A stretch of DNA of 64,000 bases from Nitrososphaerota archaeon. GTDB taxonomy: Archaea > Thermoproteota > EX4484-205 > JAAOZP01. The first letter of the stretch is position 1. Each line of letters opens with the position of its first letter. A program made the position numbers and the translations under genes. The DNA is taken from contig JAAOZP010000017.1 in assembly GCA_011605725.1 (NCBI GenBank), forward strand, positions 352,001-416,000, given 5' to 3'. Of this stretch, positions 1,927 to 42,445 are shown in pieces. The notes below the pieces were generated by a model that was not told where the DNA came from, searched no databases, and saw nothing but the letters and a program-made list of their open reading frames with translations.

Positions 1927-2640
1927 CTAGATTGGTAGGGCTACGGAATGTTTACCAACGTTCTTAGGGCTTGTTCTGAAAATCCAGACTCTGTTTCTCA
2001 AAGGATCCTGAACAACCCCTACTAGACCCCTCATCATGAGAAAGCTTAAAACAAGTGCTCTAAAAACCTTCCTGTCCTCACCCTCTCTTCCCACGAAATC
2101 ATAATAGTCAACCGTTTCACGGCCGATCTCGCCTAGAAGCCTTTCCATCTCCCTTTCCAAGTCAGCCTCCTCCATCGGAAGGATCTCTGCGAGCGCGCTG
2201 AGCCTACTGGTTTCGGGAGCTCCTCCGCCTCCAGGCAGACTGTATTCTCTAAGGTTAGCCCAGTAGCCGTAGGCTGAACGCATAAGCCCCAGGGTAGCCT
2301 GCTCGTTCTCAGCAATAGGCCGGAAAGCCTTTAGGAAAGCCTCTGCAAGCCTCTCCCTGTCTAGACTCATGAGTCTAACCTCCATTAGAAAAGGGTCTAA
2401 GTAAAGCCTGCTAGCCCTCTTCTTAACATCCTCCTGCTGGAGAGCAATAACATAGATTATTTTGAGCAGTGCAGCCATATTCATAACCAGGGTTTTCTCA
2501 TCCATCTCAGACAGGCCTTCCCTGAGCCTCTTAAGATTCTCCTTAACGTCGACAACGAAAGGATCAATATTCTTCTCAATAACCTCGTCGCATAGGCGGA
2601 TAATCCTCTCGATCAGCTCCGCATACTTACTGGATGACAT
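1927..2640 (-). CDS. scpA: Kleisin, ScpA-like
   Basis: N-terminal IDPFVVDV resembles the ScpA IDPWDIDI motif. C-terminal ALVLSFLMMRGLVGVVQD resembles the kleisin wHTH. Confidence 0.65.
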   Translation of the reverse strand: MSSSKYAELIERIIRLCDEVIEKNIDPFVVDVKENLKRLREGLSEMDEKTLVMNMAALLKIIYVIALQQEDVKKRASRLYLDPFLMEVRLMSLDRERLAEAFLKAFRPIAENEQATLGLMRSAYGYWANLREYSLPGGGGAPETSRLSALAEILPMEEADLEREMERLLGEIGRETVDYYDFVGREGEDRKVFRALVLSFLMMRGLVGVVQDPLRNRVWIFRTSPKNVGKHSVALPI

Positions 2641-3859: not shown

Positions 3860-4441
3860 TTGGAGAAGAAGGAAGCGGTTTACTCAGCTGGAAACCTGCT
3901 TGTGCTGATAGGTTTAACTGTTCTTTCAGCCTTCATGTTCGTCACAAGCCTTCAGGTCACCGGCTTTCTAAGAACCAGTGTCAATCTTTTCAGCTCCGCC
4001 CTCATATTCATAGGGTCAGTACTCCCATTCCTGCTTAAAGAGATGGAAGCTGAACAGAGAATGAGAAGCATTGGGCTAAGATGCTTTACATCAAGCTTCA
4101 TAATGTCAATACTGCTTCTGGCTCAAACAGTGTTTCGAGGATTCGCCTCAACAGTGCCGATTTTAACGTCGCTAGCATTAGGATTATCAGGCATATCGGC
4201 ATACCTTCTCTCTAGAACTGGAAGAGTCGCGATGCCGTCAATCATGGAGATACTATTGTTTGTCTCAGTAATAATGGTGTTTTCAGCGCCAATGATCCAG
4301 TTGTTTCTAATAGACCTTGGAATGAGCATTAATACTGCTAGACTAGTGTCAATCAGCATACTAATCGTGTTCACAGGAGTGCTCTATGTTTCACTCAAGA
4401 AGGCCAGTAAATCCTCTGAAACCGGTTCAAGAGAAAAATAG
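3860..4441 (+). CDS. Hypothetical membrane protein (~6 TM)
   Basis: 193-aa ORF with alternating hydrophobic segments, co-oriented with trmI. Confidence 0.7.
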   Translation: MEKKEAVYSAGNLLVLIGLTVLSAFMFVTSLQVTGFLRTSVNLFSSALIFIGSVLPFLLKEMEAEQRMRSIGLRCFTSSFIMSILLLAQTVFRGFASTVPILTSLALGLSGISAYLLSRTGRVAMPSIMEILLFVSVIMVFSAPMIQLFLIDLGMSINTARLVSISILIVFTGVLYVSLKKASKSSETGSREK

Positions 4442-4478
4442 AGCTGTTTAGCGAATGCTAGCCGTCGGACACGTAATG

Positions 4479-4486
4479 CTTAAAAC
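4479..4486 (+). promoter_or_regulatory. Putative TATA box for the downstream structured RNA
   Basis: CTTAAAA starting ~25 nt upstream of the terminal helix that begins at ~4504. Confidence 0.45.
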
Positions 4487-4503
4487 TGTCTTGAAAAGTG
4501 TCT

Positions 4504-4755
4504 GAACAGGGTAGACCAGGCTCCTGCTCGGGGGAAACTCTGAAGCAGGCCTCAACCTCTTGAGGAGGGTACAAGCCGCCTTGACCATGGGGATTGGGCG
4601 TGAAACCCGTGGAGAGGTTGAAGCAGCCCTCCCAAGATGTTGCGGAGTAAAAGCATCCTCCTCAGGCTTGTTGAAAAGCGGATTGGGGAGGATGAGCCTA
4701 CTAGCCTGGGCCCAAATGCTTCCCGAGACTCGCGTACATGGTTGAGACCTTGTTT
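4504..4755 (+). ncRNA. Unassigned structured ncRNA (~250 nt)
   Basis: Helices 4504-12/4747-55, 4516-22/4703-09, 4523-49 (GAAA tetraloop), 4552-60/4613-21, 4585-91/4606-12 and 4654-64/4684-94. Non-WC pairs read as G-U on the + strand. Confidence 0.65.
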
Positions 4756-5011
4756 AAACCATCTGACGGTTAATGCAGTAGGTGTTGTCCTCTACACCAT
4801 CTTAATGCATAACAGGTTTTCAGCTGAAGCACTTGTTGAAGCTGCGCTAATAGGCGGCTTCCTTATCGGTTACGCGGAAAACCCGCTTACCTTGAAAAAC
4901 ATCTGACTTGTGAAAAGCCTGAGACGTTTGCCATAGTAATGATAGGAGTCGTGCCTCATCCCACCCCAGCAATCCTTATTAAACCTGAGTTGTTATGCCC
5001 GCATTGTAGAA

Positions 5012-7402
5012 ATGAGTAGTCTCTTTAAATCTTCAGAGCTCCTTTTAACCTCAACAAGGATTGAACAGCTTTTCAAAAACATTAAGGATGAGCCTCATTA
5101 CTATGTGGATATGCATATCCACTCTAAGTATAGCAGGGCCACTAGTGCCAATATGACTCTCGAAAACATTGCTTTCTCCGCCAGGCTGAAAGGTCTGAAC
5201 ATCGTGGGAACCGGAGACTGTACGCATACCAAATGGTTAAAGGAGCTTAAGAAGAAGCTTGTCGAATCTTACCCTGGTCTCTACAGGTTGAGAAGCGAGA
5301 GGAATCCGGAGCAAACCACGCTCTTCCTGATTCAAGGAGAAGTTAACACCGTCTACCGTGATGAGAATGCTGTTAAAAGGATACACCACGTAATACTTTT
5401 CCCAGACTTCGACACTGTTGAACAGGCCTATGACGCTTTAAAGCATACTGGTGACCTTAATGCTGACGGGAGGCCGTTGCTCGAATGCTCTTCCCCAGAG
5501 CTTGTCGAAACCTTGAAAAGCATTTCGAAAGACATCGAGGTCTTCCCGGCGCATGTTTGGACCCCGCACTTCAGCATTTTCGGCATTCACGGCTACACTA
5601 GTGTTAAGGAATGCTATAAGGATAAGCATAGCGAGATACATGCTCTCGAAACGGGATTATCTTGTTACGATGAAAAGACAGAAGTTTTAACGGAAGAAGG
5701 TTGGAAAAAATTCTCCGAAGTAAAACCAAGCGATAAAATATATACTTTAAACCCAAAAACAGGAGAAATCGAGCTTCAACATCCCAGAGGAATCTTCTCC
5801 TACTGGTATAAAGGCAGAATGTACAGGTTGAAAACTCGAAGTGTTGATTTACTTGTCACGCCGAATCACAATCTCTTCATTACCACGTGCGACTTTAGGA
5901 ATCCAAAAACATCTTTCTTAAAGCAGGCGAGAGAAGTATTTGGGAAATCCAAAAGTTTTAAGAAGGATGGGAAATGGAACGGTAACAACGAAGAATATTT
6001 TACCCTCCCCTCCCTAGAAATTAGGCATGGAAACCGGTATTATTCTGGTCTAAGAAGAATACCTGAGAAGAAAATACCAATGAAAGACTGGTTAAAATTC
6101 TTTGGATTTTGGTTGGCTGAAGGTTGGACAACGAGGGAGAAAAACGGAGATTATAATGTTTGCGTTTCTTGCAAAGATGGGAAGTTAATTTCTGAAATGA
6201 AAAAGCTGCTTCAAAGTTTTGGATACAGGGTTTTCCAGAACAAGAAACACCATATACTTAGAGTGAGAAACTATCAGTTGTTCGCTTATCTTGAGCAATT
6301 CGGTAAACGTCATGAGAAATTTATTCCAAAAGATGTGAAAATGCTTTCGAAAGACCTTCTCAAGATATTGCTTGACTACTACATTAAAGGCTGTGGCCAC
6401 ATTCACGGAAGGACTAACAAGGGGCTATCTGCAACTACAACCTCCACAAGACTCAGAGATGACCTGCAGGAAATAGCTTTAAAGATTGGAATATCCGCCT
6501 ATTTTAAGCTCGATAAGAAAAAGGGGAATCCTTTGAAAAGTCTTTCCTCAGGAAAGAAGACTTACAGGCAGAGCAATGATTCTTGGACGGTTTATTTCAT
6601 CAGAAAAAACACACATACTGTTATTCCCTCGACCATAAGGAAAAATAAGTATATAGAAAGATGGGTAGATTTTAAGGGAAGAGTATACTGTGTATCAGTT
6701 CCTAATAAAGTAATTTATGTAAGAAGAAACGGGATTCCTGTATGGTGTGGCAATTCAGATCCTCCAATGAACTGGAGGGTTTCAAGCAATGATCGCTACG
6801 TGTTGGTTTCTAACAGCGATTCTCACTCTTACTATCCTTGGAGGCTCGGCAGAGAGGCTAACCTTATGCTCTTGGAGGATTTGAGCTATAGGAGCATACT
6901 GGATGCGATCCGTAAACAGGGCAGGTCTAGAATAATCCTCACTATCGAAACCTATCCTGAACATGGGAAATATTATCTTCCAGGTCATCGAAAATGCAAG
7001 GTTTCAGTTGACCCCGAGAAGTATTTTAAGCTTAAAGGAGTCTGCCCGGTGTGCGGCAAAAAGCTCACGCCTGGAGTAGAGACGCATATAGAAGAACTCG
7101 CTGACCGTCCTAGGGGCATAAAGCCGAGGGATGCTCCAGACTATATTCATCTCATACCGCTTTCAGAGATAATAAGCTATGTTTACTCCACAAGTTTAGA
7201 TTCCAAGAAGGCTTGGAGCATTTACTACAGTCTGGTAAAGAAGCTTGGAAGCGAATATCGTCTGCTGGTTGAAACCCCTGTGGAGAAGCTGGCAAAACAC
7301 GATAAGAAGCTGGCCTACGTGGTGGAAAAAATTAGAAATGACAGGGTTAAAATAAGGCCCGGATATGATGGAGTATATGGAAAGATTGAGGTAGTCGAAT
7401 AG
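5012..7402 (+). CDS. Endonuclease Q family (PHP-domain) protein interrupted by an intein
   Basis: DMHIHSKYSRATS, GTGD, HHVI, PAHVWTP, ETGLS|SDPPMNW, NSDSHS, GKY..GHRKC, CPVCGK, PGYDGVYG. Confidence 0.9.
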   Translation: MSSLFKSSELLLTSTRIEQLFKNIKDEPHYYVDMHIHSKYSRATSANMTLENIAFSARLKGLNIVGTGDCTHTKWLKELKKKLVESYPGLYRLRSERNPEQTTLFLIQGEVNTVYRDENAVKRIHHVILFPDFDTVEQAYDALKHTGDLNADGRPLLECSSPELVETLKSISKDIEVFPAHVWTPHFSIFGIHGYTSVKECYKDKHSEIHALETGLSCYDEKTEVLTEEGWKKFSEVKPSDKIYTLNPKTGEIELQHPRGIFSYWYKGRMYRLKTRSVDLLVTPNHNLFITTCDFRNPKTSFLKQAREVFGKSKSFKKDGKWNGNNEEYFTLPSLEIRHGNRYYSGLRRIPEKKIPMKDWLKFFGFWLAEGWTTREKNGDYNVCVSCKDGKLISEMKKLLQSFGYRVFQNKKHHILRVRNYQLFAYLEQFGKRHEKFIPKDVKMLSKDLLKILLDYYIKGCGHIHGRTNKGLSATTTSTRLRDDLQEIALKIGISAYFKLDKKKGNPLKSLSSGKKTYRQSNDSWTVYFIRKNTHTVIPSTIRKNKYIERWVDFKGRVYCVSVPNKVIYVRRNGIPVWCGNSDPPMNWRVSSNDRYVLVSNSDSHSYYPWRLGREANLMLLEDLSYRSILDAIRKQGRSRIILTIETYPEHGKYYLPGHRKCKVSVDPEKYFKLKGVCPVCGKKLTPGVETHIEELADRPRGIKPRDAPDYIHLIPLSEIISYVYSTSLDSKKAWSIYYSLVKKLGSEYRLLVETPVEKLAKHDKKLAYVVEKIRNDRVKIRPGYDGVYGKIEVVE
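5663..6754 (+). mobile_element. Intein (364 aa) with LAGLIDADG homing endonuclease domain
   Basis: Starts CYDEKTEVLT, block B VTPNH, blocks FFGFWLAEG and LLDYYIKGCG, ends VWCGN followed by Ser(+1). Splits the GLS/SDPP motif; more AT-rich than its flanks. Confidence 0.92.
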
Positions 7403-7511
7403 GCACGTGCGCTAAATTTTTATCGCACGCGCTTCAGCAATTACTCTGTGGATAAAGATTTGCCGAAGTATAAAAAGTTTAAGAAAGAGCCGCTTGTACT
7501 ACCTAGGTTTA

Positions 7512-10505
7512 ATGGCTCTTCAAAGTCAAGATGCGTTGAGTGTTAGCGAATCCTTAAACCGGACTCTGCCAAGCACGGAGGAAGTTCTAACCCTGCCTGC
7601 TGAAGCGCTTTTCCCACGCTTTAAAACTTCTCTGAATGGACTCTCCTCTGAAGAAGCAGAAAAACGTCTTGAGGTCTTTGGCTACAATGAGCTAGTCAGG
7701 AGAAAGAGGAGAACAGCAGTAGTCGATTTCCTCTCGCATTTTAAAAGCCCTTTAGTGATTATTCTCCTTTTCGCCGGAATAGCTTCAGGATTTTTTGGAG
7801 AAATTGTAAACGCTATGATCATATTTTCAATAGTGATTTTCAGCATTGTGTTAGACTTTTACCAAGAGAATAAGGCTGAAAGGGCTGCTGAGATGCTTAG
7901 GCAGAGAGTAGCAACCACAGCTACCGTGTTGAGGGATGGTGTTAAAAAGGAGGTGAGGCTTGCGGAAATCGTTCCCGGGGACATCATATATCTTTCTGCC
8001 GGCGATATTGTTCCTGCGGATGCTAGAGTATTAAGAGCCAAAGACTTGTTCGTAGACCAGTCTGCGTTGACTGGCGAATCCCTGCCGGTGGAGAAAGTCT
8101 CTGAGCCGCTTAAATCCTATGACCCAACTATAACTGAGTGGAATAACTATCTTTTCATGGGCACGTCGATTGTCGGCGGGTCTTCAACAGCACTCGTGGT
8201 CAAGACTGGAAGCTTAACTGAATACGGGAGAATTGCAAAGAGGCTTGTTGCGAGAGAGCCTGAAACAGAATTCCAGAGGAGTATCAGAAGCTTCAGCTAC
8301 ATGGTGATGCAGGTAACATTTCTTCTAGTTGTATTCGTATTCTTCATCAACGCCCTCTACATGCGTAGCATCTTGGATTCGCTTCTTTTCGCTGTAGCTC
8401 TAGCTGTCGGCTTAACGCCTGAGCTGCTGCCGATGATAATTTCGATAAACCTCTCTAAGGGAGCTGTCTCAATGGCTAGGAAGGAGGTGATAGTGAAGCG
8501 CCTAGCATCCATACAGAATTTCGGAAGCATGGATGTTCTATGCACGGATAAGACTGGAACATTGACGGAAAACCGGATAAGGCTCGTGCTTTACGTAGAC
8601 CTTAACGGCGACAAGAGTGAGAAGGTTCTACTATACTCCTATCTTAACAGTTATCATCAGACGGGGTTGAAAAACCCTCTTGACGAAGCCATACTGAGAT
8701 TTGGAGAAGTCGACGTTAGCGATTATAGGAAAATCGATGAAATACCGTTTGATTTCGTCCGTAAACGTCTCTCCGTAGTGGTTGAATATCAGAACCAGCG
8801 GTTTATGATTACTAAAGGTGCTCCCGAGGAAGTTTCAAAAATCTGCTCCTACTACGAGGTTGGAAACGTTATAGCAGACATAACGGATGAGGTGCATAGT
8901 AGGATTGAGCAGAAATATTTCGAGCTTAGCGCTGAGGGCTACAGGGTTTTAAGCGTGGCGTATAAACGCTTGAAGGCGGATAAACCAGTATACGATGTGA
9001 GCGATGAGAACGATATGGTTTTTCTAGGCTTCATAGCCTTCCTCGACCCTCCGAAGGAAACAGCCAGGGAAGCACTGCAGCTTTTGAAGAGCGCTTGCAT
9101 AGAGTTGAAAATACTGACTGGCGATAACGAGTTGGTGACTAGAAAAGTCTGCGAATACCTGGGGTTCGAGATTAAAGGGGTCGTCACGGGTGGGGAGATC
9201 GCTCAAATGCATGATGACGCTCTTGCAAGAGTTGTCGAAGAGGCTAATGTCTTCTGCAGGGTCACGCCAGCCCAGAAGGACAGGATAATAAACGCTCTGA
9301 GAAACAATGGGCACGTAGTCGGGTATCTGGGAGACGGTATAAACGACGCGCCTTCGCTGAGAACGGCAGATGTCGGCATATCTGTGGAAAACGCTGTCGA
9401 TATTGCGAAAGAGTCTGCAGACATAATTCTCCTACGGAACGATTTGAGAGTGCTCCACGACGGTGTGTTAGAAGGCAGGAAAACATTCGGCAACACTATG
9501 AAGTATATCATGATGGGCGTGAGCTCAAACTTTGGAAACATGTTTAGTGTCGCTGGAGCATCTTTATTCCTACCGTTTCTCCCTATGCTGCCCATACAAA
9601 TACTGCTCAACAACCTTCTCTACGATTTCTCGCAGTCAGCAATACCTATGGATGAAGTCGACGAAGAGTATGTTGAAAAACCCAAGAGGCTAGACGTAAG
9701 ATTCATCAGAAGGTTCATGGTTTTTCTTGGGCCAGTCAGCTCCCTATTCGATTTCCTAACGTTCTTCATAATGCTCTTCATATTCAACGCTTCCGAACCG
9801 CTTTTCCAAACAGCATGGTTCATCGAATCCCTGTCTTCACAGACCATTGTGATCTTCGCAATTAGAACGAAAAAGTCTCCTTTCTGGAGGAGCAGGCCGA
9901 GCAGAACCTTGCTTTCGAGCAGTATTGCAATAATCGCGCTCGCACTGATACTACCGTATACGCCATTAGGAGAGGTTTTCCGGTTTGCGAAGCTTCCTGC
10001 AACTTTCTTCATAGCCCTGCTTGCGATTCTCGCCGCCTACATGGCTCTAGCGGAAATCGTGAAAAACTGGTTTTACAAGAGGTACGGCTACCTTTTAGAG
10101 CAGACACTGATGCCGCCGAGAAGGATTGGAATCTACCTGAGTAAGACTGCGAGGCTCGTCCAGAACGTTGTAGCAACTATCTGCCTGCGTCCAGAAGATG
10201 AAATGACGGTTGACTCCCTGATAGAAGACTTGGAAAAAATCTTGCCGCCACCCATCAACTATGATCAAATCGGCCACGCTATCCAGTATTTGAGACGCGC
10301 AGGACTTATAAGCTTCAACTGGCGTCAGAGAACGATAAAACGTGAGAAACCGTTGAAAGAATACGTGACTAGACAGTTAATAGCCAGCGAGCTATGGCAG
10401 AAAATAGTTCAAGACTGGTATAGGATCAGTAAAATCGTCTACGAAAGATACCGGAGAATAAACCAGGAGTATCAGGAGCTTCTATCCGGCGAAAAACCAG
10501 AATAA
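7512..10505 (+). CDS. mgtA: Mg2+-translocating P-type ATPase with C-terminal extension
   Basis: TGES, TPELLP, DKTGTLT, GDGINDAP, SSNFGNMFS, FQTAWFIES. Start chosen at ATG 7512 (TTG 7494 also possible). Confidence 0.9.
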   Translation: MALQSQDALSVSESLNRTLPSTEEVLTLPAEALFPRFKTSLNGLSSEEAEKRLEVFGYNELVRRKRRTAVVDFLSHFKSPLVIILLFAGIASGFFGEIVNAMIIFSIVIFSIVLDFYQENKAERAAEMLRQRVATTATVLRDGVKKEVRLAEIVPGDIIYLSAGDIVPADARVLRAKDLFVDQSALTGESLPVEKVSEPLKSYDPTITEWNNYLFMGTSIVGGSSTALVVKTGSLTEYGRIAKRLVAREPETEFQRSIRSFSYMVMQVTFLLVVFVFFINALYMRSILDSLLFAVALAVGLTPELLPMIISINLSKGAVSMARKEVIVKRLASIQNFGSMDVLCTDKTGTLTENRIRLVLYVDLNGDKSEKVLLYSYLNSYHQTGLKNPLDEAILRFGEVDVSDYRKIDEIPFDFVRKRLSVVVEYQNQRFMITKGAPEEVSKICSYYEVGNVIADITDEVHSRIEQKYFELSAEGYRVLSVAYKRLKADKPVYDVSDENDMVFLGFIAFLDPPKETAREALQLLKSACIELKILTGDNELVTRKVCEYLGFEIKGVVTGGEIAQMHDDALARVVEEANVFCRVTPAQKDRIINALRNNGHVVGYLGDGINDAPSLRTADVGISVENAVDIAKESADIILLRNDLRVLHDGVLEGRKTFGNTMKYIMMGVSSNFGNMFSVAGASLFLPFLPMLPIQILLNNLLYDFSQSAIPMDEVDEEYVEKPKRLDVRFIRRFMVFLGPVSSLFDFLTFFIMLFIFNASEPLFQTAWFIESLSSQTIVIFAIRTKKSPFWRSRPSRTLLSSSIAIIALALILPYTPLGEVFRFAKLPATFFIALLAILAAYMALAEIVKNWFYKRYGYLLEQTLMPPRRIGIYLSKTARLVQNVVATICLRPEDEMTVDSLIEDLEKILPPPINYDQIGHAIQYLRRAGLISFNWRQRTIKREKPLKEYVTRQLIASELWQKIVQDWYRISKIVYERYRRINQEYQELLSGEKPE

Positions 10506-10704
10506 TTTCCTCCACACTCTAAAATCATGATGCGCTTAAGCTCCTTGCTCATGCGCCTGTTAAAAAATTAAAGCATTCATGAGGAATGGCGCCGCTACGA
10601 GCACTAGCTTTTAACCATGTTAGGTGGTAATCCAAGACACTCGCGGTCACGGGGCCGAGTAGATAAGCATCTTCTTCTCCGAAAACAACCGGCGCGCGTG
10701 ACTT

Positions 10705-10828
10705 TTGCTTGACTGCAGCTTTCCTGAGCTTGTCGAAATATTGAAAGAGCGTTGGGGAAACATCGGAGTCTCCCGGCGCATGTTTGAACCCCGCATTCCA
10801 GCATTTTCGGAGCCCACGGCTACACTAG
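10705..10828 (+). pseudogene. Degenerate fragment of an EndoQ homologue
   Basis: Aligns by eye to 5477-5601 (cttgtcgaaa..cccggcgcatgtttg.accccgca..cagcattttcgg..cacggctacactag), with an indel and a TGG>TGA change. Confidence 0.8.
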
Positions 10829-10930
10829 CACGTGAGAACTGCTGACTATAAAGCACCAAGGCCATACTTAACCTTGGAGAGACTTTATTTCTAGCTATGA
10901 TGAATTCATGAAGCAACTAAAGTTCATTTT

Positions 10931-42369: not shown

Positions 42370-42445
42370 CGGGCCCGCTGGGATTTGAACCCAGGTTCTC
42401 CGGCTCCGGAGGCCGACGCCTTTATCCTGGCTTGGCCACGGGCCC
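42370..42445 (-). tRNA. tRNA-Arg(CCG)
   Basis: GGGCCCG acceptor stem, anticodon loop CTCCGGA, TTCAAAT T-loop. CCA not encoded; TTTAAA box ~25 nt upstream. Confidence 0.93.

Follow-up and report, generated by a model that had tools for sequence, protein, structure and literature searches.

In Thermoproteus tenax, the SRP RNA is permuted and circular, and the bulge-helix-bulge (BHB) route by which it is made has been proven (Plagens et al., 2015, PMC4731332). It is a stable RNA with its own TATA promoter, and its leader and trailer form the BHB motif; EndA cuts, RtcB is the proposed ligase, and the new junction rebuilds a functional loop (PMC4731332). The locus that we describe here appears to follow the same scheme. 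However, in T. tenax a known RNA has been rearranged in a genome without a normal SRP gene, whereas at our locus the fold is unrelated to SRP RNA, the family spans two classes, the junction loop would form a kissing pair, and intact SRP and RNase P RNAs are encoded elsewhere in the genome.

Other BHB circles of archaea are the tRNA and rRNA introns and the circular pre-16S and pre-23S rRNAs (PMC3326292, PMC12918454). The present RNA has the same splice signal and, presumably, the same enzymes, but those circles are introns or intermediates of a host RNA, whereas here there is no host RNA and the excised part is itself the conserved product. To our knowledge, BHB circles have so far been introns, rRNA intermediates or the one rearranged SRP RNA. 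Circular non-coding RNAs of archaea also include C/D box sRNAs, omega-RNAs and small circles of Sulfolobus and Halobacterium (PMC3326292, PMC9014305, PMC12558985). In bacteria, the raiA motif RNA (PMC12968392) and OLE, ROOL and GOLLD (PMC12286853) are compact, pseudoknotted and stand-alone, and raiA RNA is abundant and binds the KhpA and KhpB proteins (PMC12968392). Our RNA has these three properties as well, but unlike them it is archaeal, it shares no sequence with them, and the raiA, OLE, ROOL and GOLLD covariance models do not match it. We know of none of these bacterial RNAs that is made by tRNA-type splicing.

The locus is a real gene for a non-coding RNA that has not been described before, and it occurs in two archaeal lineages, the Brockarchaeota and some Bathyarchaeia (we take the latter to be the class to which Ca. 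Hecatella and the Hecatellales belong). The tRNA-splicing enzymes appear to excise the RNA from its transcript and close it into a ring of about 200 bases, which then seems to lock into a knotted fold. It is the family and the fold that are new, in the sense of being absent from Rfam 15 and from the open literature searched, which held no description of them; the route of biogenesis itself is already known.

Boundaries and identity of the RNA gene

The window, that is, the whole 64,000-nucleotide stretch analysed (contig JAAOZP010000017.1 of assembly GCA_011605725.1), holds the RNA gene between a gene for a 193-aa membrane protein (3860-4441) and a TIGR00375/EndoQ-like gene starting at 5012 (Table 1). 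The gene is a single-copy sequence in the host genome. A first-pass annotation, made from the letters alone, had placed a structured RNA of about 250 nt here (4504-4755). All 16 congeneric genomes carry the RNA at 85-94% identity, and they confine the conserved unit to 4509-4716, about 201-208 nt; upstream only the BRE and TATA elements are retained, and downstream nothing is common across the congener set. The preference for the + strand holds, with a folding z against shuffles of -5.15 for 4500-4760 on that strand and -1.47 on the other; for the unit 4509-4716 z is -6.38. The TATA-like box that had been noticed (4480-4485) is borne out by its conservation, and a BRE-like element stands before it at 4472-78; from this promoter the transcription start is predicted at about 4506-4509. 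The first G of the RNA lies 29-31 nt from the TATA box in the host genus, and 37-45 nt in most of the distant homologues with a recognisable box. A protein-coding gene was considered and rejected, as no frame is kept open across congeners.

Table 1. Features of the RNA locus (window coordinates)
Feature	Position	Strand	Remarks
Archaeal promoter (BRE-like element and TATA box)	4472..4486	+	kept in 17/17 congeners
BHB 5' half	4509..4515	+	helix strand 4509-12, 3-nt bulge 4513-15; predicted cut 4514/4515
Mature circular RNA, 201 nt	4515..4715	+	back-joint in X1 and X2 RNA contigs; 194-231 nt in homologues
P1b, arm 1 and inner BHB helix	4516..4522 with 4703-4709	+	6/7 pairs with two-sided changes, 97.6% paired
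P2 hairpin, arm 2, variable length	4523..4549	+	pairs covary, apex variable
Arm 3	4550..4645	+	P3 4550-70/4626-45; internal loop 4571-77 and 4619-25; P4/P5 4578-91/4606-18
PK1 strand	4571..4577	+	pairs with 4665-4671 in L6; 7/7 paired in 17 congeners
Loop L5, most conserved segment	4592..4605	+	4594-4598 (plus 4599 in host genus) can pair with the ligation-junction loop (PK2)
J4/3 (PK3)	4619..4625	+	pairs with 3' half of L6 in many distant homologues
Arm 4	4646..4702	+	P7 4646-49/4699-4702; internal loop; P6 4654-64/4684-94; L6 4665-83, A-rich apex
BHB 3' half	4710..4716	+	helix strand 4710-13, 3-nt bulge 4714-16; predicted cut 4715/4716; post-ligation junction loop L1

Rfam 15 gave no match at the gathering threshold on the locus and only chance matches up to E 10, and searches of six distant homologues with gathering and E-value thresholds returned nothing relevant. 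The first-pass proposal of a novel archaeal structured RNA is supported by this lack of a known family at the locus, by homologues and by covariation. The same annotation had offered a highly diverged RNase P relative as the other choice. A relative of RNase P or MRP RNA, or a permuted SRP RNA, would belong to a similar size class, the circular permuted SRP RNA of Thermoproteus is a precedent (PMC4731332), and archaeal RNase P RNA (RF00373) also has, in general terms, a terminal helix, a multi-way junction and pseudoknots. However, full-length canonical RNase P (195.6 bits, C18) and SRP (141.9 bits, C20) RNAs are present on other contigs of the host genome, where 16S, partial 23S and 5S rRNA genes are also found, and RNase P RNA was found in three of five other carriers tested. 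At the locus, neither RF00373 or a member of its clan nor an SRP model matches up to E 10, no P4 pseudoknot with CR-I and CR-V motifs is seen among the invariant positions, catalytic-core motifs and SRP helix 8 are absent, and the topology drawn from covariation is different. With the SRP model (RF01857), queried in unpermuted order, the sole match in the genome was the canonical gene at C20, and a local search at the locus found nothing. Kinship with RNase P or SRP RNA is highly improbable.

Two side observations concern these known RNAs. Ca. Hecatella orcuttiae (G157) has two full-length RNase P RNA matches, at C3:4813-5114 and C2:470380-470771, the second about 90 nt longer. In the genome of the present locus (G000), the 5S rRNA match (C18:6894-7030) spans 137 nt against a model of 120 positions and may carry an insertion.

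Four-way junction and pseudoknots

The RNA folds into four arms, P1b, P2, P3-P4-P5 and P7-P6, which meet without unpaired linker bases at the junction. Across 24 diverse homologues, 92.2% of cells pair and 57 of 65 pairs show two-sided changes, counts that are inflated by the fitting of this alignment (A5) to the structure of the model. Covariation scores 0.817, as against 0.241 for shuffled and at most 0.147 for slid controls. In an independent MAFFT alignment of the genus 98.4% is paired and 14 pairs have two-sided changes. Within arm 3, such changes are found in 16/18 pairs of P3, 4/5 of P4 and 7/7 of P5, and within arm 4 in 4/4 of P7 and 11/11 of P6.

Those helices of the first-pass annotation that were enumerated can all be formed by the sequence, and several of them (4516-22/4703-09, 4558-70/4626-37, 4585-91/4606-12 and 4654-64/4684-94) are borne out by conservation or covariation. 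A GAAA-capped hairpin had been drawn at 4523-49; the hairpin covaries but the GAAA loop is not conserved. Two other proposals, a 'terminal' helix 4504-12/4747-55 and a switch partner at 4740-46, fall with the flank in which they lie, which is unconserved past 4716 in the 16 congeners; the RNA contigs described below end at 4716. The pairing 4577-81/4596-4600 is also lost, its first pair being broken in 11/17 sequences while 4578-82 pairs with 4614-18 in 17/17, and 4551-57/4613-21 is displaced by 4553-57/4638-42, which shows compensatory changes. The earlier set lacked the closing helix 4509-12/4710-13 with its two 3-nt bulges, the helix 4646-49/4699-4702, which completes the four-way junction, and further kissing interactions. 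Among other candidates, an internal L5 hairpin (4596-98/4606-08) was rejected, as 4589-91 covaries with 4606-08 in distant homologues; a local L6 hairpin and alternative pairings of 4664-68 and of 4510-14 were rejected as each is broken in some congeners.

The long-range pairing 4571-77/4665-71, which had already been read as a pseudoknot, is conserved (PK1). In other families the sequences of PK1 differ yet remain complementary. A second contact of L6 with the internal loop of arm 3 (PK3) has 5-8 bp in 10 of 14 representatives; it has 3 bp here and is weak in the host genus. Weak PK1 tends to accompany strong PK3. The mean duplex energy is -8.9 kcal/mol for cognate strands as against -4.4 (PK1) and -5.1 (PK3) for non-cognate ones, and crossed controls show nothing; because the segments were marked out by eye, the permutation values are too favourable.

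Bulge-helix-bulge motif, probable ring closure and the junction loop

The BHB pattern is present in 17/17 homologues examined, with the fourth pair mismatched in three. G4510, G4511 and A4513 of the 5' half and 4711-4714 of the 3' half are invariant in 24/24. An outer BHB helix of 6-11 bp is found in 11/11 homologues outside the host genus; in the host genus, where the promoter lies about 10-15 nt nearer the RNA, this helix has been lost and the motif is of the relaxed form. Heterotetrameric endonucleases accept relaxed motifs (PMC4731332). Genes for two EndA subunits and for RtcB are present in the host genome, where a canonical BHB processing stem with AAA bulges also flanks the 16S rRNA (G000 C9, gene at 83551-85048). 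The RtcB gene itself is a 985-aa open frame with two matching parts (G000 C9:4894-7695), consistent with an intein. EndA is known to cut each bulge behind its second base, and this rule applied to the BHB predicts a ring of 4515-4715. For a long transcript of this genome, the minimum-energy fold contains instead a competing helix with 4747-55.

The predicted joint is found in RNA. In metatranscriptome X1, a 220-nt contig (depth 309) consists of 4698-4716 followed by the bases of 4516 onward and back to 4716, and the identical joint is present in RNA contigs of X2, which comes from another study and another strain. The RNA contigs are without 4509-4514. In the DNA-like runs X3 and X4, 4716 continues into the genomic flank and there is no joint. 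The joined letters are those predicted, and they also fit a joint shifted by one base. These data are assembled contigs of congener strains, from which strand, ends and level are not readable, and template switching end-to-end on a cut, unligated RNA would give an identical joint. Contigs on the neighbouring gene in X1 have a depth of 4-6, compared to 309 for the ring contig, no more than a hint that the RNA is abundant in X1, since contig depth reflects expression poorly. The lack of RNA coverage over 3900-4510 in X1 and X2 was not counted as evidence.

The testable features of the RNA are those of a BHB-processed circle. Its production very probably takes three steps, in which the gene's own conserved promoter would yield a short precursor from the predicted start, the ends would pair as the BHB and be cut after the second base of each bulge, presumably by EndA, and RtcB, as the likely ligase, would close the 201-nt ring seen as joined sequence in congeners, a few flanking bases being discarded. 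The length of the ring corresponds to 67 codons, and in this genome one of its frames is free of stops, so that one could imagine rolling-circle translation. An endless frame is found in only 5/17 congeners plus one metagenome copy, and in 0/17 distant homologues, and ring lengths are not kept at multiples of three. As a conserved function, translation of the ring is already refuted, and we find it scarcely credible.

Bases that are conserved but unpaired cluster in the BHB and in L5. Cutting removes the 5' strand of the 4-bp helix and leaves at the junction a 7-nt loop, whose invariant CCCA is complementary to the invariant UGGG of L5. Behind the PK2 strand, L5 has an invariant C and a nearly invariant GAAA, and positions 4595-4599, 4602, 4604 and 4605 are invariant in 24/24. 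Positions 4594 and 4715 form C-G in 12 homologues and U-A in nine (the host genus and part of family f4) and are unpaired in three; the other four of the five PK2 pairs never vary, and PK2 rests on this one covarying pair. Judged from these sequence patterns, processing likely makes CCCA exchange the 5' leader for L5 as its partner, and the resulting pseudoknot could not coexist with the splice motif. Loss of the 5' strand would thus free CCCA to pair with UGGG and lock the junction, as invariance and the one covarying pair suggest, while L6 would dock into the internal loop of arm 3 by one or two more pseudoknots and clamp the two long arms. We consider this locking and docking probable.

The UGGG of L5 could also have a partner outside the ring. 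A T-box antiterminator pairs with the NCCA 3' end of tRNA, and L5 might do the same, with the GAAA-type motifs of L5 and L6 as a T-loop platform that binds the tRNA elbow and the junction CCCA as a built-in competitor. The invariant UGGG, the near-invariant GAAA and the A-rich apex of L6 are in keeping with such a candidate tRNA binder, as is the gene for a tRNA m1A58 methyltransferase (TrmI/GCD14 family) just upstream in families f1, f2 and f4. However, 4594 covaries with 4715, which favours the pair within the ring, the search for a T-loop pair showed no conserved U at position 1 of either would-be T-loop, and the TrmI linkage is not seen at Bathyarchaeia RNA loci. We regard tRNA binding as quite unlikely. 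A further reading starts from the finding that sequence constraint is strongest at the splice motif and the junction-pairing loop: the RNA would regulate the splicing machinery or act on it as a decoy, titrating EndA, RtcB or some other enzyme of RNA processing, and the fold would merely stabilise the product. Such a role leaves unexplained why a fold of four arms, with PK1 and PK3, has been retained at 34-50% identity, and we hold it to be very unlikely.

Neighbourhood, descent and candidate function

A TrmI/GCD14-family gene lies upstream of the membrane-protein gene in the window, and the order TrmI - (membrane protein) - RNA - TIGR00375-like gene is common to families f1, f2 and f4. The TIGR00375-like gene is convergent to the RNA in L262 and L304, and in Bathyarchaeia it is convergent, distant or unlinked; in genus g5, which retains the RNA, the gene was not detected. 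It occurs in 99/151 genomes of the Hecatellales class, eight of which have the RNA. The TIGR00375/EndoQ-like protein was therefore rejected as an obligate partner, the two distributions not matching. Which gene lies downstream of the RNA, and in which orientation, differs between carriers, several of which have it convergent, and among the carriers compared the RNA holds no fixed position 5' of functionally related genes, as a riboswitch or an mRNA leader would.

These comparisons bear on the possibility that the RNA is a selfish or relic BHB intron, or a 5'-leader intron of the TIGR00375/EndoQ-like gene, functionless once excised. It is excised in the manner of an archaeal intron, the TIGR00375-like gene adjoins it in many Brockarchaeia and some Bathyarchaeia, and one low-depth X1 contig runs from the RNA 3' end into that gene. 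On the other hand, the cases in which the TIGR00375-like gene is convergent or absent largely refute this reading, and most genomes with the gene do not have the RNA. What flanks the RNA is only a pair of short, unconserved hairpin strands, and there is no tRNA at the locus. Single copy number, fixed synteny, a host-like tree, the lack of a homing ORF and the lack of copies in the viral contigs searched also speak against an intron, which we hold to be decidedly improbable.

Some other features of the window may be recorded. The TIGR00375/EndoQ-like gene (5012-7402, +) is of the PHP fold and is interrupted by a probable intein with a LAGLIDADG domain; intein-free versions of about 400-480 aa are found in several relatives. 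Short antisense ORFs at about 10600-10920 resemble those antisense to this gene at 5428-5641, which suggests, from sequence likeness, a decayed partial duplicate. A remnant of about 21 codons (4769-4831) matches the start of a 187-aa gene, LemA-like by eye, that follows the RNA at locus L020 (tblastn E 1e-4); the immediate downstream gene differs between congeners, indicating frequent turnover at the site 3' of the RNA. The adjacent genes 1362-1913 and 1927-2640 (-) have no Pfam or NCBIfam matches and may resemble a kleisin (ScpA-like) subunit of SMC complexes and its winged-helix partner. A P-type cation ATPase gene (7494-10505, +) has about 140 extra C-terminal residues past its last Pfam match. 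A tRNA-Arg(CCG) gene at 42370-42445 (-) is the sole Rfam match in the window.

Three rounds of covariance models were used in the search for homologues. Of the 26 genomes of the host class (Ca. Brockarchaeota), 25 have one copy, and all four families are represented among them; the genome without a copy is 82% complete. In the Hecatellales class the RNA is found in 8/151 genomes, 5/14 of one order and 3/23 of another, and most Bathyarchaeia searched are without a detectable copy. A phylum sample of 151 genomes gave one match outside the host class, in a genome of the Hecatellales order. These searches used strict filters and covered this phylum rather than others, and more diverged members may exist. 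No copy was seen at 40 further Bathyarchaeia loci around the TIGR00375-like gene, and a loose pattern run over 401 genomes gave mostly chance matches, with no new member among the 40 loci checked. Pairwise identity among homologues goes down to 34%. In a tree of the RNA, sequences group by host family or order, and of the four host groups with several members three come out as starred clades, the deep branches being unresolved; this fits vertical descent.

What the RNA does can be approached from what it is not. It is neither a base-pairing guide, nor an mRNA leader, nor a template. Unlike C/D circles, which depend on the Rnl ligase rather than on BHB, it has no C box in any homologue checked, and it has no complementarity of more than 10 nt to the host 16S, partial 23S, 5S, RNase P and SRP RNAs, the set against which a C/D or H/ACA guide role was examined. 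Unlike omega-RNAs, it has no transposase or TnpB context. The TROVE/Ro60 protein, the partner of Y RNA, was found in 0/5 carriers, with controls positive. Sequence is constrained at the splice motif and at the L5/L1 surface while the helices are free to covary, which points to action by shape.

The explanation that covers these observations best, and about which we are evenly divided when it is taken as a whole, is a stand-alone, single-copy gene for a circular structured RNA that acts as a scaffold of a ribonucleoprotein. The last step of this scheme is its weakest: a rigid particle without ends might act by its shape, most likely serving a ribonucleoprotein as its scaffold or core, and the conserved L5/L1 surface would be the candidate binding site. 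For this way of working the raiA-type RNAs of bacteria are the best analogy, and a rigid scaffold or core as proposed for them (PMC12968392) is a candidate role that we put forward with slightly less than even confidence.

The invariant pocket of L5 and L1 might instead be an active or ligand-binding site, making the ring a ribozyme or an aptamer. A compact fold with several pseudoknots, a small cluster of invariant bases and a stand-alone gene with its own promoter would suit either. But no Rfam ribozyme or riboswitch matches, many of the invariant bases are accounted for by the BHB and PK2, an expression platform is lacking in a closed ring, and the downstream gene differs in identity and orientation; we think a ribozyme or aptamer unlikely. 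Beyond the scaffold reading that we prefer, a larger conjecture, which we offer tentatively and with more doubt than belief, is that the RNA is an old machine (a ribozyme, or a core binding tRNA or protein) inherited from the common ancestor of Brockarchaeia and Bathyarchaeia. It would putatively work only as a ring, the ligation junction being part of the conserved active surface and tRNA splicing being the switch that turns it on.

Few stable structured RNAs are known in archaea, namely rRNA, tRNA, RNase P RNA, SRP RNA and guide sRNAs, and to these a new class would be added. Its gene seems to exist solely for making a ring and is nearly universal in one class of archaea. The RNA would be a new standing client of the tRNA splicing machinery, and its fold would gain a tertiary lock through ligation.
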